Below are positions 22,283 through 58,871 of a stretch of DNA of 64,000 nucleotides, one piece after another; the stretch's first letter is position 1, and every line of letters starts with the position of its first letter. The position numbers and the translations under genes are program-made. The DNA is from Candidatus Bathyarchaeota archaeon. GTDB taxonomy: Archaea; Thermoproteota; Bathyarchaeia; Bathyarchaeales; Bathycorpusculaceae. The notes beneath the pieces are model-generated. The model had not been told where the DNA came from. It was given only the letters and a program-made list of their open reading frames with translations, and searched no databases. Where the stretch lies: contig CAWABA010000005.1 in the NCBI GenBank assembly GCA_963780185.1, forward strand, positions 96,001-160,000, read 5' to 3'.

Positions 22283-22311
22283 CGTCGAATAATGAGTTTT
22301 TTACAAGTGGC

Positions 22312-25643: not shown

Positions 25644-26254
25644 GAGACCCTTCGATGTCTAACTATCACAGCAACAGAGAGCACAGCAAGAAGCAAGGGC
25701 ACAATCACCAACGCAGACAACTCAGGAACGGAGGTCATTGGGGTAACTGTTGGTGTTGAGGTATCTAACGCGGGGGTTGGAGAAGGAATAGGAGAGGTTT
25801 CATTGTTTATTGAGAAGTAGATTGTGTCAGCCCAGGTGGCGGTGTAGTTGCCGCTTCCAATGGGGGTTTCCTTGAATGGCGCTCCTGGTGGGTTCTCCCA
25901 GCTTAGGTAACCTGTTAGGTAAGCTCTCTCAAATACCGTTAATCGGTGCGAACCGTTAGTTAACATGGGAAGATGAATATTTCCCATATCCGTCAAAAAG
26001 ATTGGTTCTTCGCCGTTTCCATCGATGCTGTAGCTAAGTTCAATGGGCATTGCCACATTTGGGTCGAGGTTTGTGCTTATGGTTAATGTCAGATAATTGC
26101 AAGTGTAGGTTTCATTAAGGGGCGAGAACACTGTTACTCCTCCTGAAAAGTGTATGGGGCTGCCTGAGTCTGCTATTGCGGCGGGAATGCCCACTGCGAA
26201 TGAAACCGCTGTTGAGCAAAGAAGCAGCGTCATCAACGCATTTTTCAGCCTCAT
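25628..26254 (-). CDS. Secreted protein with a VPEL-TM-basic C-terminal anchor (PEF-CTERM-like)
   Basis: Signal peptide; ends SVPELSALVIVPLLLAVLSVAVIVRHRR. Confidence 0.7.
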   Translation of the reverse strand: MRLKNALMTLLLCSTAVSFAVGIPAAIADSGSPIHFSGGVTVFSPLNETYTCNYLTLTISTNLDPNVAMPIELSYSIDGNGEEPIFLTDMGNIHLPMLTNGSHRLTVFERAYLTGYLSWENPPGAPFKETPIGSGNYTATWADTIYFSINNETSPIPSPTPALDTSTPTVTPMTSVPELSALVIVPLLLAVLSVAVIVRHRRVSVKKL

Positions 26255-26400
26255 GTCGCAACACTCTGACGCAATCCAACGTCACGTTGAATTACACAAA
26301 ATGGGAGATATTACTCTTCGCAGGGAACAGTCTGTTCCTCGAAAAGAACAATTAAAACTATGCCCGAACAGGGATAGTTAAAGATTTTTAACTTATGTTT

Positions 26401-26580
26401 CTGGCGTCCTGAGCCTGAGGCGGGCAACTGTAGGAGGCGTCTAATTCCTGAAATGTATTATGTGCGTTCGCCTGAGTGAAGATGGGGAAGGCGGGGCTTG
26501 GACCAACTGTTGTTGAATCCCGCCGGCGGTGTCTGTTGTCAGGTTGACGGGAAGCCTTCCACGGAGAACTCTCCCCGCCA
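26401..26580 (+). ncRNA. Candidate structured ncRNA (unclassified; strand uncertain)
   Basis: GC-rich island with several hairpins and a three-arm cloverleaf closed by GGCGG/CCGCC ending in CCA. Confidence 0.35.
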
Positions 26581-26973
26581 AAAGCGCCCATACGCGACAA
26601 TAACTTTAACATAGGCACTATGTTGAAAGTCGCATCCGCCCATCCCAAATGGGCAGCCCACAACGCAATTCAAGCCCCAAACCAAAAAAGCAATCAAAAA
26701 CGCAAAAAGCCACGGGGGAAAGTCTCAACTTTCACCAAAACAAAAGTCTCAACTTAAAAATATCTGCAAAACCCAAAACAAAAAACCCAAAAAATAACCA
26801 ATCAAACCAAAAAACGAAAATATATAGACTATAAAACCGTCAATTAGGCATGCATTCGTCATTTTTGATGGAAAACTGCTTCAGGGAATCTGCTTGTTTT
26901 CTCTTCCTTTATGTGCGATATGTTTTATAGTTAGGAGTTTGAAATCCGTTAGGTATTGGAGGGGGAATGACAC

Positions 26974-29272: not shown

Positions 29273-29450
29273 CATAATTTCGTTGTCTAACAAGGCTTTT
29301 CTTCTATTTTCCTAATTCTTGTTTTCTTAAATTGCTGTGACCGATGTTAATTTTGGGGTTTTAACACAAATCTTATAAGTGCTTTTTGCTAAGAGAAAGG
29401 TCAGAGCAAGGGCTCGATACTTTTGCTCAAAAAAGGAGAGAAAAGAAAAA

Positions 29451-33214: not shown

Positions 33215-33616
33215 ATGTTTATGCGTTATAGGTTAAGTCTTGAGAGTCGTGTCAATGTTCGCGTCTGCAAGATGCGCCGCATCTTCCATGTCGACACACA
33301 AAACACCCGCAAAAAACTCCTCATCCACCTAGAAGACCTCTTCGAAATCTCCAGCAACTACGCCCGCGGAAAAGTCACCCACATCACCGACGAAACAGGA
33401 AAACAACGCCTCCTAACAGTCGCCGAACGACAATTCTACGCAAAAATCTCCGCCTACATCGCCCAAATCATCAACAACCTCGCCAAAGGCATCGACGAAC
33501 GGCAAATCGACAAAGACCTCGACCAGCTGGAAGCCATGCTGAAAAAGACTGCTGCGGGCAAAGAGGGCGCTGGCAAGGTCGAGTTTGGAGTAGGTTGCCA
33601 GCATGGAGAGGTTTAG
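33215..33616 (+). CDS. Helical protein, candidate terminase small subunit (DERQIDKD gene)
   Basis: A copy of its 3' end (DERQIDKD) at ~49000 overlaps the terL2 start, implying ancestral terS-terL coupling; start may be 33272. Confidence 0.5.
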   Translation: MFMRYRLSLESRVNVRVCKMRRIFHVDTQNTRKKLLIHLEDLFEISSNYARGKVTHITDETGKQRLLTVAERQFYAKISAYIAQIINNLAKGIDERQIDKDLDQLEAMLKKTAAGKEGAGKVEFGVGCQHGEV

Positions 33617-34429
33617 AGCTGCTTTGCTTGCCTCACGCTTCTGCGGCGATAAAACAGGGTGGCAGCCACCAAAACGACAACCACAACAGACAATCCCATT
33701 ATTGCAGAATTCTCCCAGCCAAGACCAAACAATGAAAACGGCTGTGCGCTAGGATTGACCGAATCACTGCTAAGATTTATTATTTTCGTGGCGCTCCAAC
33801 CGCTGCTTTCCCCACTAAAAACATTCTGTTCCCCTCTCCCGCCCAATGGGGCGGGTGTAGTCTGGATGGTTGTATAATACCCTGAGAGCGCTTCTACTTG
33901 AAAATCCACTTGACCGTGGTCTAAATCGCCCCCGATCTTAACGGGGTAGTAATCAGAGCCGTTATTTCCGCTCAACCCATAATCTATTACAGTATATTGC
34001 GCATTTGGAGAAACTAAAGAAACCACTCCTCCTGACTCTTGAGTCAAAGAGTTGGAAGCCGTAACATAAATTCCTCCCAGAGAACTCGATATTTCAGTCC
34101 AAGCACCACCGAAATGCCCCTTGAACCGGACATTATAATTCAACCTTATGTTATTCCCACTTTGGTCTTGAAAATTGTTGAAGTTTTGGTTCTTTATTAT
34201 GACCTCTATTGAACGATTTTGTACATGATAACCTGCCTGAACCAACTCTGTCTTACCTGTGTAAGGATTGTTTGCATAAGTTGGTGAGATGTCGTAAGAG
34301 TGGTCAGAGTACTTCAAAGTAAACTCCGGAACAGAACGGCTTAGCTACCTCTGAACTTGCGGAGCTAGTCATCATAAGAATTGATAAAAAAAACATAGCG
34401 AGAAGCAGAATGCCACTAAACTTATCCAT
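33613..34429 (-). CDS. Secreted, C-terminally anchored surface protein (paralog family A), frameshift near the N-terminus
   Basis: Signal peptide from ATG 34429, SVPEFT, IKNQ, YNVRFKGH, QVDFQVEA, SGWS, C-terminal TM. Confidence 0.7.
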
Positions 34430-34691: not shown

Positions 34692-35885
34692 ATGACCGTT
34701 TATGCACCAAGATTTACAAAGGAACAGATAGTTGAGGGTATATGGGGTTGGACAGGCAGTTCTTGGACACCCGGTCTGACGTTCCTAGCTGGGCCCTCTA
34801 ATAATCGCCCAACCACTGCACCAGACATGACATTATGGTATGAAACAGATACCTCAACTCTATGGCAGTACCATAATAGTTGGTCAAATCTGTACGGTCC
34901 TGGCAATGAGGTTCCAACTTCAGGTAGCGATCCAAGCTCTTCATCTCTAGGAGCTTTTGTTAATAGATATGACCTTGGAGTGATTAAGGAATGCACCAAT
35001 ACCGCTGGTCCTGTCTGGATAAACATGGGATCAAATCAGGAGGGCTTGCCTACTGGTACTTTGAATACAAATCTACTTGCCGCCAATGGATACTCTGGGT
35101 TGGCATTTACTGATACGGATCAGAATCTGTCGGCGAATCTCTATCTTATACTAAGAGGTGACGGACCCCCTTATGACCCGTTATTAGCGACGGATCAAGG
35201 TCTGGTTGTCAAGAAGGACATTTCGGCTGGTGGAATGTTAGCCAGCAATCAAGGAATATTGGGTCTTGGTAGCGGATTTACTAGCGCGGATGAACCTCCG
35301 AAGATATGGCTAACTCACACTCAAGAACTTGGGAATCAAGACACGCTTTACCTCAAGCAACTTAACCTGACTACACCTGCGCATTTGGATTTGGGTAACC
35401 TGACTAGCCACGGTGTCATTACCCTCTCTGCTGAAAACGGCAATATTGCGATGCCCTACGCAGGCTGGATTCAGTTTGGCAACCTCACTTCTACGTCGTC
35501 AAAGATTAGCTGGGCGCAGGGAACAAGAAATTTCTGGTCGGCGTACGCAATAGAATTATGGGGTTGGAACCCAAATACCTCATCGTGGGAGGCCGGTACG
35601 TTGATTGCTAGCAACATTCAGGTTGACCATTTGGACAGTTGTACTGGCGCTGGCATAACATTCTTTGACCATCTAAATCTTACATCCCCTCTCTATCTTG
35701 GATACACCGATCAAAACTCTGTCTGGCATGGCGTCAAACTTTATGACTCAACAGGGTCATCTGGGTCAAATGGCCAGTTCTTGCAAGTCAACAGTTCCGG
35801 CTATCCACAATGGACAACTTGTACACTATCGACGTCCGCTCCTTCTCCGCCGCAGAACGGCAACATCTGGTTAACGCTACCTTGA
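34692..35885 (+). CDS. Tail-fibre/minor-structural-like protein, cassette 1
   Basis: Shares core TDQGLVVKKD...NQG...PPKIWLT...DTLYL...AHLDLGNLT with the S74-bearing fibres; GGAGGTG SD; ends SPPQNGNIWL. Confidence 0.6.
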   Translation: MTVYAPRFTKEQIVEGIWGWTGSSWTPGLTFLAGPSNNRPTTAPDMTLWYETDTSTLWQYHNSWSNLYGPGNEVPTSGSDPSSSSLGAFVNRYDLGVIKECTNTAGPVWINMGSNQEGLPTGTLNTNLLAANGYSGLAFTDTDQNLSANLYLILRGDGPPYDPLLATDQGLVVKKDISAGGMLASNQGILGLGSGFTSADEPPKIWLTHTQELGNQDTLYLKQLNLTTPAHLDLGNLTSHGVITLSAENGNIAMPYAGWIQFGNLTSTSSKISWAQGTRNFWSAYAIELWGWNPNTSSWEAGTLIASNIQVDHLDSCTGAGITFFDHLNLTSPLYLGYTDQNSVWHGVKLYDSTGSSGSNGQFLQVNSSGYPQWTTCTLSTSAPSPPQNGNIWLTLP

Positions 35886-35895
35886 GGAATGGCTT

Positions 35896-36879
35896 GTGGT
35901 AAATTACCAGTTGAACTACCTGAGGATCCGAATAGGGAGCTCTACTTATGCTCTCTGTTTGGTTTCTAACGGCAACGGGAACCCTAACATGGGCGGTATC
36001 CCTCATGTGCAAAGAGGCGGAACAACATACGACATCTATCTGGTTGAAACAAACGACCCCTATGCCAGTCCCGCGAGGATGCGAACAAGCGGCGGCACCA
36101 AAGCAATACGATATTTTACAGAATACCTCGATACTAGCCACGGCGACACCTCACACTCCGATGCCACACCGCACACTAACAGCGCCCACACTGACCACTC
36201 AAACAACATCCCGCACACAGACGGAATCTACTATAATGATGTAGCCCATTCAGATTTTACCTATTCAGACTTTAGCGATGTTCCCCATACTGATATTGCC
36301 CATCAGAACGCTGCTGCCCACTCCGATGTTGCCCACAATGATGTCAGCCACAGCGATCAAAGCAACCACACGAACTACGATGACTGGGCATATTATCAAG
36401 ACAGTTTCGGTGACTACCCAGACAGCCAATTCTACAGCGACTTTGATAACTACTCGGATGTCACTCACACCGATTCCGCGCACTCGGACCTAGGCGTCGG
36501 ACATACTGACTCCAACTCGCACACTAACTATACCGACTGGCCCTACTACCAAGATGACTTCGGTGACCACTCAGATAACGTCGGACCATACAGCGATTTC
36601 AACGACCACGCAAATACTGCGGGCGGCCACGGCGATTCCCCTCATTATGACGTCGCCCATTCCAACGCTGGAACATACAACGACTACAACGATTCCTACT
36701 TCCATCAAGATCTGTGGGGGCCACCGCACAGCGACATACCTCATAGCGACAACCCGAACTATTACGGCGACGGAGGCTACACTGACCATGAAGATGTACA
36801 CTCGGACTTCAGCAACCACAGCGACATTGCCCACGCAAATGGTTCACACTCCGACCACGAAGACGTTCCAACCTTCTAA
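35896..36879 (+). CDS. His/Asp-rich protein with ~50 [H/Y/F]-x-[D/N] motifs; putative radical-SAM substrate
   Basis: ~80-aa N-terminal domain, then HGD/HSD/HTD/YSD/FSD/YND repeats to the C-terminus. Confidence 0.8.
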   Translation: MVNYQLNYLRIRIGSSTYALCLVSNGNGNPNMGGIPHVQRGGTTYDIYLVETNDPYASPARMRTSGGTKAIRYFTEYLDTSHGDTSHSDATPHTNSAHTDHSNNIPHTDGIYYNDVAHSDFTYSDFSDVPHTDIAHQNAAAHSDVAHNDVSHSDQSNHTNYDDWAYYQDSFGDYPDSQFYSDFDNYSDVTHTDSAHSDLGVGHTDSNSHTNYTDWPYYQDDFGDHSDNVGPYSDFNDHANTAGGHGDSPHYDVAHSNAGTYNDYNDSYFHQDLWGPPHSDIPHSDNPNYYGDGGYTDHEDVHSDFSNHSDIAHANGSHSDHEDVPTF

Positions 36880-36900
36880 CGCGAAATTGAGGGAATTTAT

Positions 36901-37602
36901 TTGGACGAAGAAACTAGCCGCGAAATTCAAACAAGCATAAGCCAGTGTCTACCTAAAAACGCCAATGTACTTTTCTTAAGTTTGACGGGCAGCCGAGCTT
37001 TCGGGTGGGCTGCGGACTCGCAAGACTACGATGTACACGGCGTCTTTCTCTGCAATAACTACTGGGACTGGGTACACTCGGGAAAACAAAGCTTCGATAT
37101 CAACCTCTACGAATTCACCCACGTAGCATCTGACATACACAACCAGCATTTCGAGCAATTCATGAATTGGTCAAACCCCTTCTACGTCGACAGCAAATTT
37201 GACTTAGATGGCCTACTTCAATTTTGCACTCCCGAGGCAGTCAAACAAAAACAAGGAGACATCCAAGCGCAAATTAACCGATTCAAATTTGACCAGTCGC
37301 CCAGAACTGCCTTGCACGCTTACAGAATACTGATGATTCCGATTTACTTTCTGGAAAACAGCAAGTTTGAGCTAAACGTCTTCAAAATAAACGAAAAATA
37401 CAGCTTCGAACAGCTAAGCAAACTCAAAGACGCCTACAACATACCAGGCAAACCATTCGACATAACCAAAGTAAACGACGATTTAGACTATTTGCTCAAG
37501 CTGTATAATCAGATGCTTACCGTAAAAACAATTGGACCTGACCCATCAACAGCCAGTGAATGGATGAAAAACGTAAGGGCAAAATATGCAGGAGAAAACT
37601 AA
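36901..37602 (+). CDS. Pol-beta superfamily nucleotidyltransferase (PF10127/RlaP-like)
   Basis: LTGSRAFGWAADSQDYDVHGVF = GS...DxD motif. Confidence 0.75.
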   Translation: MDEETSREIQTSISQCLPKNANVLFLSLTGSRAFGWAADSQDYDVHGVFLCNNYWDWVHSGKQSFDINLYEFTHVASDIHNQHFEQFMNWSNPFYVDSKFDLDGLLQFCTPEAVKQKQGDIQAQINRFKFDQSPRTALHAYRILMIPIYFLENSKFELNVFKINEKYSFEQLSKLKDAYNIPGKPFDITKVNDDLDYLLKLYNQMLTVKTIGPDPSTASEWMKNVRAKYAGEN

Positions 37603-38869
37603 AATGACTATACTTGTCGTACCGAGCCTGAACTGCAACTTGCATTGTGGCTACTGTTTTGCACACGGATATGATTGGAACACCGCTACAACCTACAACC
37701 TTGAAGCCATGCTTGAATCAATGGAAACGCTGCATAATGAAACCAAAGGCGACAGCTTCTGCTTGCACGGCGGAGAATGTACTCTTATCAATAGAAGAGA
37801 CTTGGAAACTATTCTTAAAAAAATGTATGATTTGCAAGGCTGCTCATCTTTGCAAACGAATTGTTACAAAATAGACAATGACTTGGTTAGGCTTTTCAAA
37901 AACTACAAGACTTCAATAGGAGTTAGCATCGACGGCGATGGCTCCTTGAACGCTTTAAGAGGCTTTCCTGAAGACGAAGAAAAAAACAAGCAATACACAG
38001 ATCAAGTGCTAAACAACATTTTCACCCTCTACAAAGAGGGAATATCGGTGGGCCTCATAGTTGTTCTGACGAAGGTCAACGCTGACTCTGACGCCAAACT
38101 CGAAAGGCTGGTGCAGTTCATTCTGATGCTAAAAGGCCATGGAATCAAAGGCGGGCGATTCAACATTATGTGGAGCAACTATTCTGATAACAAGAAGTAC
38201 GAGTTGACTTCCGAAGAAGCTTCCCACGCATGGGTATACCTGTATGAACATCTCAAAAAATACAGCGACCTCCAATGGCAGCCTTTCCGAGAATTTACGG
38301 ATAACTTGCTGGGGTTCGGGCACTCAAGCTGCTCCTACGGAAAATGCGACTACTTCTGCACCAGCACAAAAGTGATCTTGCCCGACGGCTCATATGGGAA
38401 TTGCGACAGAACTCACCAGGAAGGCTCCACATACACAAGAGCTCAGATGTCATACGAAAGATATGAAGTTCTCAAGCAAACCGACTGCTGCAAATGCAAA
38501 TTCTGGGACGTCTGCTACGGCGGCTGCCCATCCGAAGGCCAAGACGGGGACTGGAGAAACAAAAGCAGATGGTGCAAACCCATATACGACATGTATTCTG
38601 CAATAGAAAGCGATCTCGAAGCCATGTTACCTAATGTAAAACTTATGGTTGACTATCAGGGAAACGAAGATTACTTTGACGCAATCAGAAAAGGAGCCAT
38701 GAACGAACCCTTCGAAAAAATGACCGCTACAACAGCCAACAACCCATCCAGCTGGCGTCAAGTATCCCTAAAGAAAAAACCTGCGGATCAGAACAAGCCA
38801 ACCAATAATCAACCTAAAGGGATGATACATGGCGACTTCACCAACAAGGGAGGAGACCAAAAATGTTAG
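37586..38869 (+). CDS. Radical SAM/SPASM domain maturase
   Basis: CNLHCGYC, LHGGE, GVSIDG, SPASM Cys set (CSYGKC, GNCD, CCKCKFWDVCYGGCP, WC). Confidence 0.9.
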   Translation: MQEKTKMTILVVPSLNCNLHCGYCFAHGYDWNTATTYNLEAMLESMETLHNETKGDSFCLHGGECTLINRRDLETILKKMYDLQGCSSLQTNCYKIDNDLVRLFKNYKTSIGVSIDGDGSLNALRGFPEDEEKNKQYTDQVLNNIFTLYKEGISVGLIVVLTKVNADSDAKLERLVQFILMLKGHGIKGGRFNIMWSNYSDNKKYELTSEEASHAWVYLYEHLKKYSDLQWQPFREFTDNLLGFGHSSCSYGKCDYFCTSTKVILPDGSYGNCDRTHQEGSTYTRAQMSYERYEVLKQTDCCKCKFWDVCYGGCPSEGQDGDWRNKSRWCKPIYDMYSAIESDLEAMLPNVKLMVDYQGNEDYFDAIRKGAMNEPFEKMTATTANNPSSWRQVSLKKKPADQNKPTNNQPKGMIHGDFTNKGGDQKC

Positions 38870-39816
38870 AAATTCAGCCATTCGTGAAGATCGCGTGGAA
38901 TGACAACGCAACAAAAAACCAATACTCCGATATGCTTGAAAAAGTCAAGAGGCTTTCGTTTGATGCAGAATACGAAATGGTAAAGCGCGGCTTAAGAAAA
39001 GCAAATGTTTACCATATGACCCCGAGGAACTTTGACGTGGAAATCGAGAAAATAACTAGAGACGGCTTGGTGTTTCTGCCGATGGTTAGAAGTAAATCGT
39101 ACAATGGATTCAGCCACAGACATTACCCGGTGAACGAGTTAGACTTCAACTGCTTCGTGTATGGCGTTGTAGCCCAGAACCTGGAGACTGCACAGAAATT
39201 CTGCGACGCCTCTAAAGTCGGCGATCACGTCACACAAGGAGAACTGCTCGGTTACCCTAAATGCTGCAGTGAAGCCTTCCAAAAGAACTGGGCGAACGGC
39301 GTTTTAGATCCCTGCTTCGAAGCTGCGATTAACACTAACTACTCTGTAAGATACCAAAACAAAGTGCTCGTTGAGGGAGATGGCTTAACAAATGTGATGC
39401 TGCGGTACTTCGGCGTAAAAGTAATCCCGTTCTTCCCTTGCAGTTACACTTGCGAAGAAGCTCTGAAGGTTGCTGACGTATGGTTTGACCTGATGAAATC
39501 AATGGATTCTGACGTTGCCGCTGTCGCCTTGGACTTGCTGAATCAACCCTTGACGTGGAGCCTCTACAAGCAAATCATCTACATCTCGACAACGCGGTTC
39601 AAAGGAATAGTCAACGGTTACGAGTGCGCTGACAGAAAGGACATAATTTGGAATGCAGAAAACAAAGAAACAAAAGAACTGCCGTTTCTAAAGCCGATTG
39701 AGGTAGAGTTACAAGGTGAATCTTCCATTCAACCTTTAAGTCCTCAAAAAACTGAAGCCAAACTGAAAACTTGCAAAAAACGCTCTTCAGATTTCGTTAA
39801 CCCTGCCAAAGAATGA
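38863..39816 (+). CDS. Cys-motif hypothetical protein (DUF483-like)
   Basis: GELLGYPKCCSEAF and PFFPCSYTC motifs; overlaps the rSAM stop. Confidence 0.6.
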   Translation: MLEIQPFVKIAWNDNATKNQYSDMLEKVKRLSFDAEYEMVKRGLRKANVYHMTPRNFDVEIEKITRDGLVFLPMVRSKSYNGFSHRHYPVNELDFNCFVYGVVAQNLETAQKFCDASKVGDHVTQGELLGYPKCCSEAFQKNWANGVLDPCFEAAINTNYSVRYQNKVLVEGDGLTNVMLRYFGVKVIPFFPCSYTCEEALKVADVWFDLMKSMDSDVAAVALDLLNQPLTWSLYKQIIYISTTRFKGIVNGYECADRKDIIWNAENKETKELPFLKPIEVELQGESSIQPLSPQKTEAKLKTCKKRSSDFVNPAKE

Positions 39817-39894
39817 TGTCAACATAGAAATCAACAACAAGAAACGAAAAAATCACTTTTTTACAAATAAATCGACTTGAAAGGGGGGATACGA

Positions 39895-40101
39895 ATGAGT
39901 GAAAAACAAGGAGCTACTTCTGCTCAAATGTCACCGATACCTCAGCACGTCGCTATGCTGAACCTGCGAATTAACGATATGATGACGCAGCTTAACACGG
40001 TTATGAAAGCGATTTTGGACGAGAACAACGCGTTAAAGCAGGAGAATGCTGAATTGAGAGCTAAACCGCAAACGGCAAGCCAGTCAACAAACAAGCAATA
40101 A
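39895..40101 (+). CDS. Small coiled-coil protein, copy 1
   Basis: QHVAMLNLRINDMMTQLNTVMKAILDENNALKQENAEL. Confidence 0.75.
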   Translation: MSEKQGATSAQMSPIPQHVAMLNLRINDMMTQLNTVMKAILDENNALKQENAELRAKPQTASQSTNKQ

Positions 40102-40260
40102 ACCTTTGGTTTGCTGAACAACCTTTTTTCTTTTTTCTTCATTTAGAGATTTTCAACTGATATTTCAATTGGAACTGACGAGCGTCAAATCGACAATGAC
40201 CTAGACACGCTGGAAGTGATGCTGAAGAAAACCGCGGCGGATGCGGCTGCGGGTTTGGAT
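40102..40260 (+). repeat. Junction repeat R1 (T-tract + GAGATTTTCAACTGATATTTCAAT + terS-like 3' fragment)
   Basis: Near-identical to 44902-45105 and 48922-49120; the distal part matches 33490-33560. Confidence 0.8.
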
Positions 40261-40283: not shown

Positions 40284-41622
40284 TTAGACCTGTTTGGTTT
40301 GTTTTGCGTTTTTGCCGCGGTAGAACAGGGTGGCAGCCACCAAAACTACAACGGCGATAGTCAACCCCACAATCGCGATTTCCATCCAGCCAACGCCGAA
40401 AAGCACTCCTGTCTGAGTGTTTGGCTGCTGTGATGTTGCTGTAGAAGTTTGGGTTTGTGAAGTTGCGGGATGGCTGGGTTGGCTTGTTGTTTGGGGGTTA
40501 GGTGTTGGTATGGGCGCCTTCGGGTCAGGCGCGGCCTCTGTGTTTGGCGAGGTTAAGATCGGCGTAAACGTCACTGTGCCAACGTTGTAGTTGTCTTTGT
40601 GGTCGTAGATCGTCTGGTTGATTACTGAGAGGTCAGTTGTTCCCCACCAATTATTTATGGCAGTTACGTCGCCAGCCGTTGAACTGTAATTGCCCTGTTG
40701 CCCCAAGTAAATGTTGTATTGAGTGTTTTGTTCAAAATTGTTGTATACAATTGTCGGCGTTGGTGAACCAGCGTATGCGCCATTTGAATTATAGATGTTT
40801 ACGCCTATTGTGTCACTAGCAATTGTATTATTTTCAATTATGGGTTGTGAGTTTCCGTAAATGGCAATTCCGATATTGGCGGCATCGATTAAATTCCTTT
40901 CAATAACAGGTGTGCCTCCGCCAACGGCTATTACGCCCTGAGAAAAAGTTTGACCGCTAACGTGGTTATCAGATACGACAGCCCTGCTTGAGCTAAAAAG
41001 ACCAATAGCATATTGCCCCGAACCCACAAGGGTGTTATTGGTGATTATGGGTGAACCATCATTAACCGTTATTGGATTACTGATTGGATTACTGAGTCTG
41101 TTGCTGGAAATTACAGGTGAACCTCCGTTAACAGTTATGCTGCCAAAATCCAGATTTTGCGTTATTTTTGGAGACGCATTACTTACGATAATGGGAAAAT
41201 CACCTCCACTATATGCGTTTTCGATAATGCTGCCACTGCCAGTTTGCTCGTTCCAAGCGCTGCCTAGACGGGGTAAAAACAATTGATCCAGTATAAGAAC
41301 TATCTAGGGCTGTGGTGAATTGTATCCATTTGTTTGGATCGCCCTCTGCCTGTAGAGTGCCGTTCACAAGCAATGCGTATCCGTTTAAAAGTACTGAAGT
41401 TCCTGGCTCAATCTTAAGCGTTACACCCCTGTCCACAGTCACCGGACCTGATATGTTATATGGACTGTTGGTCTGTGTCCATGTCGTGTCTGAAGCGATG
41501 TCCCCCGTGACGGGCGTATAATGTGAACCTATCTGCGCAAACGAGGTGCAAGAAATACTAGCAAAAAACAACCCGCAAACTATGATAGCTATTAGTAAGA
41601 GTGTGTAGGCGGGTTTTTGCAA
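40284..41622 (-). CDS. Secreted right-handed beta-helix (NosD/pectin-lyase-like) protein with a C-terminal TM; frameshift near 41270
   Basis: WTQTNSPY, LKIEPG, SPxIxNN repeats, NNWWGTT; C-terminal TM like 33613. Confidence 0.75.
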
Positions 41623-41919: not shown

Positions 41920-42642
41920 ATGGACAAACAGCGTAAAGGTTTGGCCTCAATCTTGATTCTTGTCGTTGCTATCTCATGCCTGACCTTATCGATGGTTAAA
42001 TTTGTAAATGCCCAGTCAGTACATGTTCCCGAATTCACGGTAAAATACGTATCTTCATCCTACAATACTACAGACCCGTATAAGGGGATAAGTCAGCAAG
42101 TTGACAACAACAGCATAGTTGTGTCCATCAAAAACAACCCGTTGTACTATCAAGGTCAACAGGCTATAATATACTACAATGTCACGACAAAAGGTCACTT
42201 TGAAGCAAATTGGACATATATCCTTACAATTGCTCTGAATCTAACTAATGGACCGCTATATCATCTTCCACAATCTCTTGAAACAAACTATGGATTAGCA
42301 TCATCAAACTCATCATATAAGGACATTGTCATTCCCGCGAACCAATATCAGCCTAATTCACAAATTGACTTCAGAGTTCAAGAACTTGAATTAAACTCGT
42401 CTCAAGTTACGATCTACCCACCTAACGGTGGCGACCCAAGCATTGAAACAGCTTACTATCTGGTAGGAACCAGTGACTGGAGCACGACTCAAACGGTAAC
42501 AGTACATGCAAGCTCTGCCTCGCCAACTCCTTCAATACCAGAAATCCCAACTTTAATCCCGCCTTTGTTACTTTTATCGATAGCTGCTGCTGCACTGCTT
42601 ATATTCAGGAAAGTTGGATCATCAGTGCCAAAGGTTTGTTAA
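41920..42642 (+). CDS. Secreted, C-terminally anchored surface protein (family A)
   Basis: Signal peptide, VPEFT, IKNNP, YNVTTKGH, QIDFRVQ, SDWS, IPE+TM. Confidence 0.75.
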   Translation: MDKQRKGLASILILVVAISCLTLSMVKFVNAQSVHVPEFTVKYVSSSYNTTDPYKGISQQVDNNSIVVSIKNNPLYYQGQQAIIYYNVTTKGHFEANWTYILTIALNLTNGPLYHLPQSLETNYGLASSNSSYKDIVIPANQYQPNSQIDFRVQELELNSSQVTIYPPNGGDPSIETAYYLVGTSDWSTTQTVTVHASSASPTPSIPEIPTLIPPLLLLSIAAAALLIFRKVGSSVPKVC

Positions 42643-43136: not shown

Positions 43137-44676
43137 TTGAGTTACATTAACTTAGAAGTTACTAATCTTTTAACAATTGATAACACAATGAAGGTGAAGG
43201 ATTCACAAAATGGACAGTATGGATACGTAGCTATAACTGCCACAAATGGACCTGATACTAATAATCCAATTGCAACTTTAACGCTAAGCGATCTATGGGT
43301 TACCGATCAATTGTCAATAACTGCTCCTAACAACGGTTGGATTACATTAAAGGGCATAGATCTTGGCAAAGGACCAATAGTACAAATTAGTCAAGCAGTG
43401 ATGACTAAAAGTGACCTCATTGTCTACGGCCTCATAAACACCAGTACCAACCCTACGAAACTTTGGGGCGGAGGTGGTATAGCTATTGGTTATGGTTGGG
43501 TAGGCCATCCCCAAGGGGGATCACCACCTCTCATTTGGTTGACCGGCGCGTCGGAACCGTATCAGTCGGGCAACAGTTTTCCGTCAAGCGTGATTACCGC
43601 TGATGCGGGTGAACTGTTTAATCTTACTGCTACTTGGAGCGGATATTCTCCTGGCTACTACCTGTGGAACGGAAGTAACTGGATTCTTCAGCCGAGCGCT
43701 AGCGGGTTCTACGATACCTTGTTCTTGGTTCAGTATAACTCGTCTGGCATCGAATCGCCTGCTCATTTGGATTTGGGCAATTTGACTGCTCATGGCGGAA
43801 TGACGGTCAATGGGACTATAACCTTAAGCGGAATACCTATGATGAATTTTCAGGAATGTCCTGGCGATTACCTCGTAAAGGGCTCGAGAGGTCATCCAGC
43901 CTTGACTAATGCGACGATGACTCGCGTGTGGTTGGAAATCGATGATGCCTCACTTGTGGAGGGTACAACCGGGCCTGGAGCAAGCATACAATTCAATAAT
44001 AATGCCACCAACTACTGGGAAATTATTAACAGCGTTTACTGTGCAGCAAGTTGTATTCCAGCGTCTGACAACCTCGAGTTCTGGTATGACGGGCCAAATC
44101 CTGGCTCCAAATTCGCAATTTATGGCAATGGCGCTGTCTGGACAATGCACAACAAGATAGATGATGGCTCAGGAAACATGACTGTCAGCGGCGCCGTTTA
44201 TGTGGACTCTGGTCATTTTGTGAGTATGTCTTCTAATTCGAACATGTGCTTTGATGGTGGATCTAGTGCAAACTTTTACTGGCGATGTAACTATAACCTG
44301 CCTCAATTAAACAACTTCACAACCACAATGACTCTGACTCCGTGGGGCGATTTGTACATAATCGGAAGTTACTATAGCTGGTCATCGCAACGCAATAAGA
44401 CAAATATTATTTCAATGCCTGACGCTTCATGGATTTACAATCTAAGACCTGTAACGTTCGATTGGACCGATCCAAAGCGGGCTACAGCGCTAGGCAGGAC
44501 GATGGGACTTATCGCTGAAGAAGTCTACACAATCAATCCACAACTGAGTAAAGCTAGACGATGACGGGCAGCCTCAGGGGATAAACTACGGTTTGCTTTC
44601 AGTGCCGATTCTTGCAGAGTTGCAGAAGTTAAGGACAGAAGTTGACGCATTAAAAGCCAAATTGGCAGCCTCTTAA
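43137..44676 (+). CDS. Tail fibre with a C-terminal peptidase S74 intramolecular chaperone, cassette 2; frameshift near 44550
   Basis: SSQRNKTNI...LRPVTFDW...GLIAEEV, continuing LSVPILAELQKL in another frame. Confidence 0.75.
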
Positions 44677-44718
44677 ATCAGAAAACAAAGATTCAATGAT
44701 TCAGGAGGTGTCACAGAA

Positions 44719-44901
44719 TTGGCAGAACAGACAAACCCCCCAGGCTCTCCTGTCGTGCAGCATATTGGTGTTTTGAATTTGCGGATTAACGATATGATGT
44801 CGCAGCTTAACACTGTCATGAAGGCTCTGATGGAGGAGAACGCGTCTCTGAAGAAGGAGAACGGAGACCTGAAAGCTAAACAGCAAACAAGCAAGCAGTA
44901 A
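44719..44901 (+). CDS. Small coiled-coil protein, copy 2
   Basis: QHIGVLNLRINDMMSQLNTVMKALMEEN; GGAGGTG SD. Confidence 0.78.
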   Translation: MAEQTNPPGSPVVQHIGVLNLRINDMMSQLNTVMKALMEENASLKKENGDLKAKQQTSKQ

Positions 44902-45753: not shown

Positions 45754-48682
45754 ATGTCGCAATATCAAATCATCGGCGGAAACAGCAGTGGTCCCGGCTT
45801 ATGGTTTACCAGTTGGGGTTCAGTTTCAAGCTTTGGCAGCAACCTCGGCATTGGCTTAACGCCACAAACCCAAGGTCAAATGGTGCTTAACGGTGGCAGC
45901 GGCGGATTCATATTCGCAAATTCAGGAACTACAAAAGCCTCAATAGACGGCTCCGGAAACATGACGCCTATTGGCAGTGTACAGTTATCATCCGACTTTA
46001 GCCAAGCGGCTCTCAGTAGCCTTCAGATAATTGCGGATATTTACGGCTATGCAGGCGGCGTTTTCCTTGGCCCGACAATCACGTTACCTCACACGAATAG
46101 CTATACTGCGTTTGTCGATAGCTATAGTAGCTACCAATCAAATCTCTTTCTAGTAATGGATACAAATGGATACCCCACTACCCCGTCAAAATGGTCGCCG
46201 CTGATCGCAACAGATCAAGGTTTCATAGTAAAAAAGGACATTCAGGTTGGTGGTGCTTTTTTTAGCAGTCAAGGTGCAGTCAATCTAGGTGGGGGGGTTC
46301 ACATCTCAAATTGATTATCCTATGATTGCCCTAAATTATTACGGCGTCAACAGATTAAGTGGGAACGGTTCATACAATATCGCGGCTATTCCTCAGTATT
46401 CATCTCCGCCTTCAGGACAATCCGGTCAGGTCTATATAAATACAGGAAATAATCACCTGTATAAGTACAACAGCGGTTCTTGGCAGGACATGGGGCTGTC
46501 TTCTAACTTCAACAACAATTATGATACGCTATGGCTCAAGGGATCATCAGCTTCAACTCAGGCAACAGACTGGCCCTGGGCAAACTTGGAGCTTGAAAAC
46601 TTGACTGCTCATGGAAACATTACTATTTATGGCGCTCTTACAGTGGGCTCAAACCAGTCATTGACAGACGCTTATGGGCAGTCAAGCACGAGTTGCAAAG
46701 GGTATTTTCTGCAGTCGGACCCGACAAATGGCTATCCGAAATGGGTTTCGCAGTCGGCGACATGGAACGGCGGTACAGTAACTACAAATATAGAAATAAA
46801 TTGTGTACAACCCTACCTTGATTTGCTCTATGCAGGCTATGAAGAATGGGAAATCGGAATGATAACATCTGGAAGCACATCGCTTCAATTTGCTTACTCA
46901 AATCACAACGTCGTTATGACTTTAGATTACTCAGGTGACTTGACGCTTGCAGGCGCATTATCTACTACCGCCACCAACTTTCATCTTGCTCCAATATCAG
47001 GCGGCAATATTGGATTTACAAATTATGCTAAAAGCCAGTGGGGACTATATGTCACTGATGCTACTAACCCTACAGCGCACACTATGAATAACACATTAGA
47101 TGACGGCTCAGGTAACATGAGGTTTGCGGGTACTCTTAGTTTAGGTGGAACCCAAAGCAACATCGCCTACTCAGATGGTCTAACAGCTAGCGGTTTATGG
47201 AACATAGGCGGTAATTGGTTTACAAACTATGACGCGTCTTTTTTCCAAGACATGTTCAAGTTCAACCCTCCGATGCTCGCAGAATACCAGGATAGTGGCG
47301 GCTGGCACAGTACAAGCATTCCTTTAACTTTGTTTCTCGGAGAGCAACTGGGCGGATTTAACATTGCAAATGGCTGGCTGGGTTACCGTCTAACATGGAA
47401 CAACAACATGTATTCTTTTCTCGAAGCGCTTCTCATACACTATTCAACCCAAGGCAATTCAATGACTATGACACTGCAAACTTCCACGGACAATACCAAT
47501 TGGACAACTGTAACAACGATTTCAGGAATAAACAGCTGGCCTGGCTACACAGCATACAAGAAAGGCATAATGACTTACAGCCCTAACATATACATAAGAA
47601 TAATCTTCACTCCTGCATGGAACAACGGCAATGGCATAGAACTGTACAACATCAGATACATGGCAAGCTACCCATACAATTGGACTAACGAAAACTTCGC
47701 ACTTTACACATGGGATGCATACAAGAATGTAACATTCGGCAACGCTATAACATCTGGCGGCGACGTAATTATCCCTGGCTCCAACCATCTGTATTTTAAC
47801 GGTGGAACCACTTGCCTAAACTACTACAGTGGCTATGGAAATAATACCATAACAACAAGTGCGGACTTTAACGTAAACGGAAACTTGTACATGGCAGGTC
47901 AAATCAGCTTCTATCCCGGCAGCGGAAAGTATGCGTACTTAATTTGGTCCAACTCTTACGTCTTGACTTTAGGTGCCAACGGCGGACCATTCTATTACGG
48001 TGTCGGACACGATGGATACACAGGGTATTTCGGCGCGCTAGACTGCGGAGCGGTTTTCACCCAGTACATCAACCCCATAGGTTCGCTCAGCACAGTCACA
48101 CTAGGCGGCAACTTCACTGTTAATGGCAACATCTACTCTTGGAATGGCGGCGGTGGCGGAGGCTCTAACGGCGGCATATACCTTGACAGCTATGGGAACG
48201 TTCGCTTTGGCGGAGGCAGCGGCACTGGAGACCACAACTGGGTCACCTACTTTGGCAACACGATTCTGATGCAAGTCTGGAACAACGGCTATCTTAGCCT
48301 GCCACAAACATTGAACGGCAGCAACGTGCCCGTGTACTGTAACAGTAGCGGTACTTTGTATAAATCCAGCTCATCCATACGTTACAAGGAACGCATTCAA
48401 CCAGTTACCGACAGCTCGTGGATTTACACTCTGAAACCAGTTACGTTTTACTGGAAACAGGAAGAGCAAGCTCTTCGAGGCATCAACCAACAGATAGGCT
48501 TAATCGCTGAGGACGTCAACACTGTGCAGCCTTTGCTTACTTACATGGATACTCAGGGAAACATTGATGGAGTGTACTACGAAAAGCTCGCTGTGCCAAT
48601 AGTTGTTGAACTGCAGAAGCTCCGGGCACGGGTTGATCAACTGGAAAGTCAGCTCAAGCAAAAACCAGCGGCGGCAGCTTAG
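45754..48682 (+). CDS. Long tail fibre with an S74 chaperone, cassette 3; frameshift in the G-run near 46290
   Basis: Shared core domain; SSIRYKERI...LKPVTFYW...IGLIAEDV...LAVPIVVELQKL. Confidence 0.8.
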
Positions 48683-48729
48683 GAAGATCACTTGATTCTT
48701 GGCAACCAATGAAGCAGGAGGTGACTTAC

Positions 48730-48921
48730 TTGGCACAAGACAACTTACAGGCAGCTCCTGAAGGGCAGTCGCTCATGCAGCACATCGGCCTGTTAAACGT
48801 GCGCATTAACGATATGATGTCGCAACTTAACACTGTCATGAAGGCTCTGATGGAAGAGAACGCATCGCTGAAGAAGGAGAACGCTGACCTGAAAACTAAA
48901 AAACAAAATAGCAAGCAGTAA
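48730..48921 (+). CDS. Small coiled-coil protein, copy 3
   Basis: QHIGLLNVRINDMMSQLNTVMKALMEEN; TTG start after GGAGGTG. Confidence 0.78.
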   Translation: MAQDNLQAAPEGQSLMQHIGLLNVRINDMMSQLNTVMKALMEENASLKKENADLKTKKQNSKQ

Positions 48922-49120
48922 GCAAGCGGCTTGCTAAACAACCTTTTTTTCTTTTTCTTAAAATTAGAGATTTTCAACTGATATTTCAATTGGAACTGAT
49001 GAGCGTCAAATTGACAAAGACGTAGACAAGTTGGATGCTTTGCTTAATGAAACAGAGACAGCAAACGCGGTTGCGGCGGATGGTGGGCAGCGACCAAGAA
49101 AGTCAGAAGGCACCTGAAAA
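48922..49120 (+). repeat. Junction repeat R3, running into full-length terL2
   Basis: Same sequence as R1/R2. Confidence 0.8.
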
Positions 49121-50920: not shown

Positions 50921-53523
50921 ATGACGATTACAAGAGTCCAAGGCAACAAAAAAGGAATAGCTGACAATAGCAGCTCCCTCAATATCACGCTGGATGCCAA
51001 CCCGATAAACGGCAACTTGCTTATAGCTGTCATCGGCACTTATGCAAGTTATCCTCCTAGCGTCAGCTCAATTTCACAATCAAACGTCTCGTGGACTCGG
51101 CAAGCTCAACGTTCCGACTCTTCGCTTCTGGGCAGAAATGTTGAAATCTGGGCTGGCGTCGTTTCCGCCAATGCTTCTTCAAGTTTAACGATCACACTTG
51201 CCAGTAGCGCTGATCCAGTCGTGGCAGACGTTTGCGAATACAGCGGTTTGGTAAGCAGCAATTTCTTGGATCAAATAGCAACAGCAGATAGCTGCTATAC
51301 AACAACCCTTGCAACGGGTACCACTACAAACACTTCGAATGCCAACGAGCTTTGGATTGGAGGTATATTTAATGTATGTGACGTCTGGAACGGAAACAAC
51401 GACTCATCTCCCACAAATGGATTTACGCTACTCGACGGCATTGGAAACTCTTCTAGTGGTGGAACAAAGAAGTCTGGCCTATCTGGAAAAGATTGTCTCC
51501 ACAACTGGAACTGCTTATTCAGGAGTCACTGGTGGTTCATATTCAACGTATGAAGCTTACGTTGGCTGCATTGCCACTTTTAAGGCGCCCGCAAGTGCTT
51601 CTAAGCTCGCCTTCACGGCAGGTGCTGGCCAATTGGTGGCTGCAGGCATAGTTTCCAGCGTGATTACTGTGCAAGTGCAAGATTCAAGCGGCAATCCTGT
51701 CACGTCAGGCGCCACGGTTGGATTGTCAACCTCTTCAGCGGGCGGTACATTCTATTCCGATGCAGCGGGCAACAACCAGGTTACGTCCATTACAATCTCT
51801 TCAGGGCAGAGCGCAGGTAGCTTTTACTACAAAGACACTACCGTAGGTATGCCAACCCTTACGGCGTCTTCAACAGGCTTAACGTCGGCTGCAACCCAGT
51901 TTTCCGTCAGTCAGTGGACTGCGGGGGTTGTTACCGGCGTTTCGGGCGGTGTGAAGATTTCAAGTTCAAATGCCTTGGTGCTTGATAGTTCGTACAGCCC
52001 AACGTTTGCAGGATCTACATTGACCGGCAATACTCCAACCCTATATCTACCTAGCAACATCTGGTGACGCTTCAATCGGATTTTTTGATGCATCAACTAT
52101 TAAGATGGGCTTGTGCTATTCCGCAGCCGGTGACTACCTCTATCTACGCGATCCTACCGCTCAACAAGATCTTCTTCAAGTTAGCCAGGATGGACAGTTA
52201 AGAATTCCCGTTCCAGGGAGCTCAGGTGGACTGTTACTCGGTACAGATGCAAGCCTTTACCAAAGTGCGGTTAATACTCTGGCTACAAGCGGCAACCTGA
52301 CAATTGCTGGAAATGCTACAGTTGATCACGTTTTGACTCTGCCGTGCCCAGTTAACGCTTACATCCCTGCTTATATTCTAAATATGGGTTGGCTCTGGCA
52401 CTATACGAGCGGCATATGGGATCCATCAGGCATGCCCATTGACAATACAACCAATTCATTAGTTCTACAGCATCCTACCCTTCTAGACCCTAATAACAAC
52501 AATCAGCCTTACTTCGCAGACTGGACACTAGCAATGATTGATAATAGCCCCAGAACAGATTATCCATACTGGCCTATCATGTATACGCATTCAGGCGTAA
52601 TGATACAGCGTGACCTCTCAGTCGGCGGCTTCGTATGTTCAAACCAAGGAGCGTTGGCCGCAGGACACGGTTTAAAATATCAAATGGACCCACCAAAAAT
52701 TTGGCTAACAGATTCAGGCACTTCGTTAGCCGATAACATATTATACGCACCCAGTGACCCCCAAAACCCAAAAGACCTTCAACTATACATCTGCAATACT
52801 GACCAGAATCCTTCCCGTCAACTTTACCACATTTATCAATACAGTGTGACTTTGGGCAGTTGGAGTGACCTTGGACCAATGAGTCAATTCCAAAGTCAAT
52901 ACTTCGACACATTGTACATACAAAAAGCCAATTGTAAATCAGCAGGAAACTTGAACGTAGCAAACATTACAATGGACGGTTACTCACGGATAACCTGGAA
53001 TACGCCTTCAAATACGGATTGGTATGATATTGGTAGTATACGTTTCAACAATACTTCAAACAGCTTAGGTATGGAATTCAAAGGAACCGTGCACGACTTT
53101 GATCTTGGTAGCCCCCCAGATCAGACCCTTTATCCAGTGTTGCAGATGAATTTTCTCGATCCAAGTCTCAATAATGGTTACACCACCACGCATGAGTTCG
53201 ACATGAATGGTAACATGCGTATCTGGGGCAATTTGTATTATGCCGGAAGTTTAGTTCCCTTTGACTCTATTGACGATTTTGCCGCATTAAGAACAATAAA
53301 AACAAAAATCGATGGAAATGGAAAGCCAATTCATGACCCTGCGACGCTGAAATTTCTCCAAGATGACAAGGGGCTTTTCTCATTGGGCGCATGTGTAGGC
53401 TGGGAATTGAGCATTGAGCAGAAGCTCCTTAGCGAAATTGACAGCCTCAAGGTAGAAGTCGCTGATTTGCAGTCTCAACTCAACGCCTTAAAGACAAGCA
53501 ATCAAAAGGGTGCGGTGAATTGA
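50921..53523 (+). CDS. Tail-fibre-like protein, cassette 4 (three ORF pieces, probably frameshifted; may be two genes)
   Basis: Ser/Thr-rich beta domains, Ig-like KLAF...ITVQVQD domain, shared core RDLSVGG...NQG...PPKIWLT...DTLYI, C-terminal coiled coil. Confidence 0.65.
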
Positions 53524-53524
53524 T

Positions 53525-53707
53525 TTGTCAAAGGAACAAAACGAAGCTTCTCCAGTCATGCAGCAAATCGGCATGCTAAACCTGCGCATCAACGACATGA
53601 TGACACAACTAAACGCTGTTATGAAAGCATTGATGGATGAGAACGCTGCTTTAAAAAAAGAGAACGCTGACCTAAAAGCTCAACAAGAGAAAACAACTAA
53701 GGCCTAA
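53525..53707 (+). CDS. Small coiled-coil protein, copy 4
   Basis: QQIGMLNLRINDMMTQLNAVMKALMDEN. Confidence 0.78.
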   Translation: MSKEQNEASPVMQQIGMLNLRINDMMTQLNAVMKALMDENAALKKENADLKAQQEKTTKA

Positions 53708-58846: not shown

Positions 58847-58871
58847 CGTCCATTGTCGCAGCGCAAAACGG

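Follow-up and report, generated by a model that had tools for sequence, protein, structure and literature searches.

What does a radical S-adenosylmethionine (SAM) enzyme modify when its gene lies inside a virus-type tail-fibre cassette, next to the gene for a His/Asp repeat protein? The question is raised by a 64,000-nucleotide stretch of DNA (the window) from a Candidatus Bathyarchaeota archaeon (assembly GCA_963780185.1, contig CAWABA010000005.1, positions 96,001 to 160,000), whose source genome comprises 2.75 Mb on 13 contigs. A six-gene operon at window positions 34692-40101 encodes, in order, a fibre-like protein, the repeat protein, a nucleotidyltransferase (NTase), a radical SAM (rSAM)/SPASM enzyme, a Cys-motif protein of family DUF483 and a small coiled-coil protein (table 1). 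A first-pass annotation proposed that the enzyme installs dozens of cyclophane cross-links on the repeat protein, in an archaeal virus or virus-derived particle. Here, we weigh that proposal against related loci and known enzymes. The best explanation, judged from sequence comparison, is that a virus-type fibre cassette here houses a widespread, uncharacterised module for protein maturation. The core of the module is a conserved three-gene set of repeat protein, rSAM/SPASM enzyme and DUF483 protein, and the rSAM-DUF483 pair very probably modifies the repeat protein.

The operon is as tight as was first described. All six open reading frames (ORFs) lie on the + strand, separated by gaps of 10, 21 and 60 nt or overlapping by 17 and 7 nt, and a strong Shine-Dalgarno-like sequence, GAGGAGGTGA, stands upstream of the first ATG. 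Pfam and NCBIfam scans of the six genes found no protease or transporter family, again as claimed, and no DNA-modification family. Look-alikes of the operon proteins in the Atlas were merely DUF483 and viral hypothetical clusters again.

The repeat protein has a non-repetitive N-terminal part of about 75 amino acids (aa) followed by about 250 aa of triads, units that begin with an aromatic residue and end, two positions on, with Asp or Asn. There are 23 HxD, 15 YxD and 4 FxD triads (42 [HYF]xD), or 53 when counted as [HYFW]x[DN], which bears out the 'about 50 motifs' of the first-pass annotation. The pattern is strict: x[DN] follows 31 of the 32 His, and both HxS and HxH number 0. In 2000 shuffles of the protein, mean counts were 4.6 HxD, 10.7 [HYFW]xD and 16.9 [HYFW]x[DN], and none came close to the observed values. 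The protein has no Pfam or PHROG match. When 15,570 stop-to-stop frames of at least 60 aa were screened genome-wide by an Hx[DN] criterion, four passed; the three besides the repeat protein are of HxN type and are read as off-frame readings of low-complexity DNA, so that the 327-aa protein is the only true HxD-rich frame of the genome. It adjoins the genome's only copy of this rSAM.

Related loci were gathered with rSAM-specific peptide patterns, yielding 97 loci (17 from species genomes and 80 of 134 from IMG/VR, a set that includes proviruses) that form 70 clusters at 90% rSAM identity. Two of them (L004 and L027) may be one sequence filed twice, since their rSAM/DUF483 coordinates and scores are identical. 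The window's own locus (L001), two phage records (L099 and L100) and five further loci (L101-L105) stand outside the count. ORFs were called by our own script from the first ATG, GTG or TTG to the stop, and an ORF was termed rich at an arbitrary threshold of at least six Hx[DN], at least five of them within 60 aa. A rich ORF lies near the enzyme gene in 60 of the 70 clusters (upstream in 51, downstream in 12), a DUF483 gene lies at most 2.5 kb away on the same strand in 66, and both are present in 56. Rich ORFs are concentrated at the enzyme genes, with 75 near them (in 240,436 aa of ORFs) against 2 farther off (291,256 aa). Neighbouring repeat proteins and a co-occurring Cys-motif protein, both of which the first-pass annotation had proposed to look for, are the rule. 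The ten clusters that have no rich ORF include two Bathyarchaeota metagenome-assembled genome (MAG) loci, where neighbours of 406 and 520 aa carry short triad patches, as well as loci cut by a contig end and loci whose rSAM tail itself holds 4-8 triads.

The same rule governs the repeat proteins of these loci. Among 71 candidate substrates (the window protein and 70 from other loci), 92% of the 2,298 His in repeat regions precede x[DN] (D 77%, N 15%), and an aromatic residue stands at -2 of 88% of the 2,302 Asp. Neither the middle residue (S 23, T 19, G 12%) nor the flanks are fixed, and the commonest spacing is five residues; the conserved feature of the putative substrates is the three-residue unit aromatic, any, Asp/Asn. 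Candidates range from 200 to 1400 aa with 6-130 triads (the longest has 1,421 aa); 23 of the 70 measure at least 600 aa and 17 of the 70 have a hairpin-type N-terminus. A twin-arginine-like pattern occurs in 7 of the 70, two of which also have a lipobox-like motif. The match in L051 was put down to chance. The other six, on species-genome contigs filed as bacterial (L007, L009, L011, L012, L015 and L018), are HxD-repeat proteins of 109-487 aa, and these versions suggest export of a protein modified in the cytoplasm.

The enzyme beside these proteins belongs to the radical SAM superfamily (PF04055, 45.9 bits against a cut-off of 29.5). Its CX3CX2C motif (C17, C21, C24) lies near the N-terminus and is nearly invariant across 30 sequences, and the cysteines of a SPASM region like that of the anaerobic sulfatase-maturating enzyme anSME (C249, C254, C273, C301, C304, C310, C314 and C330) are conserved across 30 homologs. 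A PDB search was made with an alignment profile, as phmmer with the single rSAM at E<=1e-10 matched nothing. The best relative, over the full length, is anSME 4k36 (E 3.4e-29), whose auxiliary-cluster cysteines align opposite the SPASM cysteines of the rSAM; the second is the triceptide synthase ChlB (E 1.4e-17), over the N-terminal half. Pfam detected no PqqD or RRE domain in the window rSAM. Its top NCBIfam models are DynA, AmcB, anSME, TIGR04083 and YhhB, all scoring far under their cut-offs. NCBIfam scores of 30 family members served as a proxy for a similarity network with reference sequences: DynA, anSME, AmcB and TIGR04083 are the best models in 30 of 30, DynA being the top model each time, and YhhB matches 29. 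On these profile scores the family appears to be an anSME-like SPASM enzyme nearest to cross-linking peptide maturases and a member of no curated family; that cyclophane-forming maturases and anSME are its nearest known relatives agrees with the initial assignment. Relatives in a large protein database number 68, of which 27 have 54-79% identity; one bears an automatic 'anaerobic sulfatase-maturating enzyme' label and none has a specific functional name; the closest named records come from two Candidatus Bathyarchaeota MAGs. Prokaryotic viperin (pVip) was considered and rejected, the PADLOC pVip and NCBIfam viperin matches being limited to residues 16-170 of a protein with a full SPASM domain.

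The Cys-motif protein is assigned to DUF483 (PF04467, 27.2 bits against a Pfam gathering cut-off of 25). Its homologs conserve H85, H122, C134, C135, D149, R181, Y182, C193, C197, W207 and W232, and the conservation of the four cysteines among these makes a predicted four-cysteine metal site plausible. An AlphaFold2 (AF2) model is well formed (predicted local distance difference test, pLDDT, 86.6; predicted TM-score, pTM, 0.80). Foldseek found no match for it in the PDB at E<=1e-3 (best 0.084, TM 0.14-0.23), nor did a DUF483 profile match any PDB sequence below E 0.18, so no function can be transferred from a solved protein. Modelled together, rSAM and DUF483 protein gave a complex score of 0.84, the best of 3 controls reaching 0.00. 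Among 80 solved complexes 58 score as high, and among 110 mismatched pairs 2 do, counts that hold only roughly because our own alignments were used. Contacts agreed between runs to at least 74%, with a partner pLDDT of at least 77, and recall of a solved complex does not explain the result, since DUF483 has no solved relative. In the modelled interface the SPASM region 257-298 and the family-invariant D322-W323-R324-N325 of the rSAM face the N-terminal strand and last sheet of the DUF483 protein, which is thus a conserved and probably physically bound partner of the enzyme, a role that the first-pass annotation had missed.

A profile search of 1.84 billion representatives returned 3,039 DUF483-like clusters at E<=1e-3, 1,497 at E<=1e-10 and 682 at E<=1e-30. 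Ten long DUF483 proteins include fusions to rSAM (3), PqqD (2), methyltransferase (4) and family 2 glycosyltransferase domains (2); a LAGLIDADG insertion occurs in one of the ten, and a DUF364 fusion is also seen. PqqD is the peptide-recognition domain of pathways to peptides that are made on ribosomes and modified after translation (RiPPs), and the fusions to rSAM and PqqD favour a complex that modifies peptides or proteins over one that modifies DNA.

Phage genomes place the module among tail genes. A tblastn search of 50,697 phage records matched three cultured Thermus phages. The annotated order in Cumys is tape measure, baseplate proteins, tail collar fibre, a hypothetical gene, Cumys_13, 'rSAM protein' and 'DUF483-domain protein'; Cumys_13 is a 343-aa HxD-repeat protein in which three 'GSxWIEGxxLxYLD'-like hairpins precede about 250 residues of HxD triads. 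The rSAMs of Cumys and phiMa are 31-32% identical to the window rSAM, and gene order and direction are equal, the window having the NTase inserted. In L039 the tape measure and phrog_8610 are followed by an 869-aa protein whose HxD array is C-terminal, and then by rSAM and DUF483. In a PHROG scan the repeat protein follows a tape measure and tail protein in L019, a 1,791-aa tail fibre in L025 and a virion structural protein in L041. Many phages carry the repeats as the C-terminus of tail proteins of 600-1400 aa, and four of seven large phage repeat proteins tested have a phrog_8917 body with a C-terminal triad array.

The tail context thus recurs in 5 of 5 phage loci whose neighbours were examined, and these neighbours mark the module as mostly a phage tail-module feature with cellular offshoots. 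Its presence in the tail genes of many phages also means that a virus structural protein is probably chemically modified by a radical-SAM cassette. The 17 species-genome loci come from Bathyarchaeota, Firmicutes, Chloroflexota, a Halomicrococcus plasmid, Actinobacteria, cyanobacteria, Nitrospira, Armatimonadota and Thermodesulfobacteriota. The module is widespread in bacterial phages and some bacterial chromosomes and is neither unique to this archaeon nor an archaeal peculiarity, which the first-pass annotation had overlooked; the viral link that it proposed holds. The rSAM/DUF483 pair of a Bathyarchaeota MAG chromosome (L003) has small regulator-like genes around it and, at a distance of about 4 kb, a 505-aa ORF (14324-15841); this ORF is read by eye as a tyrosine-recombinase-type integrase, which would fit an integrated element.

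A three-gene 'rSAM module' conserved in Cumys, phiMa and prophages has been described, with the suggestion of an unknown DNA modification (bioRxiv 10.1101/2024.08.14.607894, PMC11437467); the accessible part of that work makes no mention of histidine, aspartate or a repeat substrate. Within the literature covered, thin for subscription journals, DUF483 and radical SAM were coupled in this preprint only, and HxD repeats were linked to both nowhere. If its suggestion were right, the rSAM/DUF483 pair would act on DNA, and the repeat protein could be an unmodified, metal-binding fibre or surface protein. The preprint, in its accessible part, does place rSAM/DUF483 homologs near deazapurine DNA-modification genes in some cyanobacteria; the operon described here, as noted, holds no DNA-modification family. 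Metal binding would suit the composition of the repeats, because His and Asp are classic metal ligands. The tips of T4 long tail fibres bind iron through HxH motifs. Such a protein would nonetheless have to be squared with a repeat gene that accompanies the enzyme pair through phages, archaea and bacterial chromosomes alike, with the PqqD domains fused to DUF483 and with the equal triads that the enzymes carry in their own tails. We regard an unmodified repeat protein as highly improbable, and return to its modification by the rSAM-DUF483 pair.

From the gene content, triad statistics, three-gene linkage and phage tail-module context observed here, we infer an enzyme-substrate relation of the following kind. 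The rSAM and the DUF483 protein would form the modelled complex, in which the rSAM would cleave SAM and abstract a hydrogen from the beta-carbon of the Asp or Asn at triad position 3. The ring of the aromatic residue at position 1 (His, Tyr or Phe) would then be bonded to this carbon, as is done by triceptide and daropeptide maturases, through a C-C link, or a C-N link in the case of His, and each triad would lose 2 Da. With about 50 triads cross-linked, the disordered 250-residue tail might become a rigid, protease-resistant and possibly metal-binding rod, which would serve alongside the fibre-like protein encoded upstream and the coiled-coil protein encoded downstream. Cross-linking of aromatic-x-Asp/Asn triads by a maturase of two subunits, on a protein associated with the fibre, seems to us probable, with less assurance than attaches to modification as such.

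The pair might also act on the repeat protein by other radical chemistry, such as epimerisation (which brings no mass change), another change at the Asp beta-carbon, or a change to His that does not close a ring. No function can be carried over from any family to an rSAM that scores under every curated cut-off, its best full-length structural relative, anSME, oxidises and does not cross-link, and the fusion of DUF483 to methyltransferases (4 of 10) or glycosyltransferases (2 of 10) hints at further chemistry. The triads themselves point the other way: strict pairing of an aromatic residue with Asp or Asn two positions on, around a free middle residue, is what a 1-3 cross-link predicts and what a change to a single residue does not need. 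Oxidation of the middle residue in the manner of anSME is disfavoured because a middle Ser/Thr is not conserved. Other chemistry is on this evidence unlikely, though not far-fetched, and cross-linking remains the reading that we adopt.

The surroundings in the window are those of tail-fibre genes. Three paralogs of the coiled-coil gene (62-65% identity) each lie directly 3' of a fibre-type gene (table 1), and within this genome all four copies are found in the window only. Two of these fibre genes, those beginning at 43137 and 46289, have a Peptidase_S74 intramolecular chaperone domain and match PHROG tail-fibre families. As the paralogs directly follow fibre genes, the four extra genes of the operon separate a fibre-like gene from its coiled-coil gene, and the first-pass placing of them inside a fibre module is correct. 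The coiled-coil protein has weak YabA/ZapB coiled-coil matches (Pfam, NCBIfam), and its homolog lies upstream of the rSAM in L003 and L101. No Pfam, NCBIfam or PHROG match was obtained for the 397-aa fibre-like protein, whose Atlas look-alikes are viral clusters throughout (0.89-0.92, to be taken as a lead only). Nor does it have a Peptidase_S74 domain, the stretch common with the S74 fibres being 51-63 aa alone. A terminase large subunit gene is present intact at 22610-24049 (-), and a second is split into overlapping ATPase and nuclease ORFs (49035-49697 and 49661-50443), probably by a frameshift; homologs of the second occur in 5 of 30 same-genus genomes (G417, G416, G414, G403 and G408) at 70-73% DNA identity. 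With S74 fibres, PHROG matches, coiled-coil paralogs and terminase, the virus and tail-fibre context is real, and the cassette region is virus-derived.

Virus-derived DNA may be out of use, and the cassette could be a decaying remnant of an integrated virus. The split terminase gene lies 9 kb downstream, no capsid or portal gene was identified in the window, and the cassette is rare in the genus. Of 30 same-genus genomes searched by DNA, one (G410) has the rSAM and DUF483 genes, the rSAM copy there being N-terminally truncated. A search of 400 other genomes of the phylum for the rSAM protein gave no match at E<=1e-20. Decay sits poorly with six intact and tightly packed ORFs that have a ribosome-binding site and a T-rich end, with catalytic cysteines and partner-interface residues that are all kept, and with four intact fibre and coiled-coil cassettes, of a type that also occurs in relatives. 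We think a remnant quite improbable, and take the cassette as an intact candidate maturation module.

Table 1. Features of the operon and of the paralogous fibre cassettes in the window.
Feature	Coordinates	Strand	Basis
Fibre-like gene, 397 aa, first of the operon	34692..35885	+	ORF; local similarity to fibre-type genes
Repeat protein, 327 aa, proposed substrate	35896..36879	+	Motif counts and shuffles
Pol-beta superfamily nucleotidyltransferase (NTase), 233 aa, accessory	36901..37602	+	PF10127 RlaP; phrog_388
Radical SAM/SPASM enzyme, 427 aa, anSME-like	37586..38869	+	PF04055; CX3CX2C; SPASM cysteines; phrog_1802 E 8.5e-26
DUF483 Cys-motif protein, 317 aa, proposed partner subunit of the rSAM	38863..39816	+	PF04467; complex model; fusions
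Small coiled-coil gene, 74 aa, closes the fibre cassette	39877..40101	+	Three paralogs; likelier start is ATG 39896
T-rich tract past the last stop, possible archaeal terminator	40124..40139	+	Sequence inspection; function inferred
Paralogous cassette 2: fibre gene with Peptidase_S74 (43137-44564) and coiled-coil gene (44719-44901)	43137..44901	+	PF13884 E 1.7e-7; coiled-coil 65% identity
Paralogous cassette 3: 797-aa S74 fibre gene (46289-48682) and coiled-coil gene (48709-48921)	46289..48921	+	PF13884 E 4.9e-8; PHROG tail-fibre matches; coiled-coil 62%
Paralogous cassette 4: fibre-like gene (52105-53523) and coiled-coil gene (53525-53707)	52105..53707	+	Local similarity to the operon fibre-like gene; coiled-coil 62%

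Several points weigh against a cross-linking maturase acting on a virion protein. The rSAM reaches 26-81 bits where the curated models have cut-offs of 300-650, and with scores so far below it falls in none of the characterised cyclophane families. Characterised triceptide motifs include HAA, HNR, HTK and HAS for His and YDR and YSK for Tyr (PMC11499958, PMC12912966); in the accessible parts of these two papers no triad is YxD or HxD or has Asp at position 3, so that of the motifs credited to known maturases in the first-pass annotation the His-containing ones stand and YxD was not seen. Triads also occur in the enzymes. At least two Hx[DN] triads lie in the last 90 residues of 51 of 70 rSAM homologs, tails of the archaeal clade being HGDxxHGDxxxHGD-like and often Cys-terminated, and the rSAM of phage phiLo (L100, 7001-8449), next to a DUF483 gene annotated as a methyltransferase, has nine in its tail and no separate repeat gene. 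A picture of one enzyme and a separate substrate leaves these tails unexplained; they are possibly sites of self-modification, a pseudo-substrate or a docking element. The closest archaeal relatives (L002, L003 and L104) have merely short triad patches on proteins of 406-565 aa, and His/Asp-rich repeats could simply bind metal. The AF2 model of the repeat protein (25-row alignment) shows no confident fold (pLDDT 44, pTM 0.17), which makes the rod-like product a conjecture. The operon's fibre-like gene matches the fibre genes at 43137, 45754 and 52105 only locally (44-46% over 51-63 aa); with this, the lack of an identified capsid or portal gene and a split copy among the two terminase genes, a functional virion or particle cannot be claimed.

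The remaining operon gene, the NTase, is a rare accessory of the module. Its PF10127 match (25.5 bits, cut-off 23, E 1.3e-5) covers residues 19-55 alone, an N-terminal motif. It is present in the window and in 3 of 102 other module loci inspected, adjoining the module in L002 (65% identity) and L041; the third, L102, was judged by eye. This last, a metagenome locus of the archaeal clade, encodes rSAM, DUF483, a 234-aa protein with 46 triads and then the NTase. In minviopeptin a cyclophane His receives ADP-ribose from an enzyme unrelated to the NTase (PMC12912966, accessible in part), a precedent for a nucleotide-derived group on a cyclophane His that makes nucleotidylation after cross-linking conceivable, by analogy, as an optional later step.

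Other features of the window are as follows. Predicted surface proteins with a C-terminal membrane anchor flank the cassette (29379-32054, 33613-34317 (-), 40284-41282 (-) and 41920-42642), among them one PQQ-like propeller with many paralogs across the genus and one NosD-like beta-helix. The intact terminase gene lies within a segment of about 4.6 kb (22235-26837), between the end of a ribosomal-protein operon and Hsp20/L15/SecY; in G403, a genome of the same genus, about 330 bp separate its two flanks, so the segment looks like an insertion. A 69%-identical copy of this terminase is on contig C6 of the same genome. Cellular genes in the window encode HypF, HypD, an AMP-binding enzyme, ribosomal protein L15, SecY and Hsp20. 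The HypF domains are divided between two adjacent ORFs (4747-5991, with acylphosphatase, zinc fingers and YrdC; 6003-7040, with the Kae1-like part); the division is perhaps natural, perhaps an artefact of sequencing. Across 58001-64000 the G+C content rises from about 0.45 to 0.60-0.64 with almost no DNA match in the 30 same-genus genomes, and this part may be foreign DNA or a chimeric assembly join. Rfam and tRNA scans of the window found nothing.

A wider proposal is offered tentatively, as one that could fall either way and is perhaps a little more apt to fail: that tailed viruses of bacteria and archaea use a dedicated rSAM/SPASM and DUF483 maturase to place tens to more than 100 His/Tyr-to-Asp three-residue cross-links in a fibre tip or accessory protein, and that some bacteria reuse the chemistry on lipoproteins exported by the twin-arginine translocation (Tat) pathway. 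Known targets of radical SAM/SPASM maturases are small antibiotic-like peptides and the cofactors of a few enzymes, and whole virus structural proteins would open a new area. If correct, this would extend RiPP-type chemistry to virions, with no earlier case of a virion structural protein modified by a radical SAM enzyme, and the product would be far more heavily cross-linked than any other ribosomal product known. The proposal would also give a function to DUF483, a family of at least 1,497 representative clusters (E<=1e-10), and explain a gene set labelled hypothetical or 'arylsulfatase regulator' in phage genomics, and the DNA-modification suggestion for the Thermus phages would need revision. 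Cross-linked His/Asp arrays could serve as heat-stable, protease-resistant or metal-binding materials. The cultured, harmless phages Cumys and phiMa carry the module, which makes the proposal directly testable.

How does the module compare with systems already known? Triceptides share an aromatic1-X2-X3 architecture in which a bond links the aromatic ring to the beta-carbon of residue 3 (PMC11499958, accessible in part). Like the triceptide synthases (XyeB, GrrM/OscB, FxsB, YhhB, HaaB, HtkB, ChlB and MicB), the window encodes an anSME-like rSAM/SPASM enzyme beside a putative substrate with aromatic1-X2-X3 repeats, following the same rule as in related clusters; its NCBIfam matches include the triceptide models AmcB, YhhB, GrrM, XyeB and FxsB, and ChlB is the second-best PDB match. 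It differs in scores far under the cut-offs (27-69 bits against 310-450 for XyeB, GrrM/OscB, FxsB, YhhB and AmcB, as a proxy only), in Asp/Asn at position 3, in the DUF483 partner and in the virus tail setting. The triceptide RiPP pathway has a leader-core peptide, 1-3 motifs and a protease, and cleavage ahead of the first motif is said to occur in every characterised triceptide (PMC12912966, accessible in part); here the candidate is a 327-aa protein with no protease gene beside it. The novelty of such a SPASM maturase would lie in its partner, its class of substrate and its biological setting.

Among other rSAM/SPASM enzymes, anSME (4k36) gives the best full-length match of any solved protein, and its radical SAM and SPASM cysteines all align with those of the window rSAM; it acts on a protein, not a small peptide, and abstracts a beta-hydrogen. 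The window rSAM scores 69 bits against the TIGR03942 cut-off of 349, no sulfatase family was found in the six genes (Pfam), and no (C/S)xPxR motif was seen on reading the repeat protein, no pattern search being made. The daropeptide maturases DynA, DarE and DarW make antibiotics of 7-8 residues, and the window rSAM reaches 80.6 bits against a DynA cut-off of 450. DynA forms a Trp-to-Asn beta-carbon bond and a His-N-to-Tyr beta-carbon bond, each across three residues, so that Asn at position 3 and a cross-link from His both have a precedent. The His-Xaa-Ser system (HxsA, the rSAMs HxsB and HxsC, and HxsD) likewise pairs a His-x-residue repeat substrate with an rSAM/SPASM enzyme; the window differs in lacking HxS altogether, in scoring 26 bits against 370 for HxsB (TIGR03978), in its single rSAM and in its DUF483 partner. 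The rSAM module of Cumys and phiMa is the same module of HxD-repeat protein, rSAM and DUF483 in equal order; the version described here is archaeal, has gained an NTase and stands between a fibre-like gene and a coiled-coil gene.

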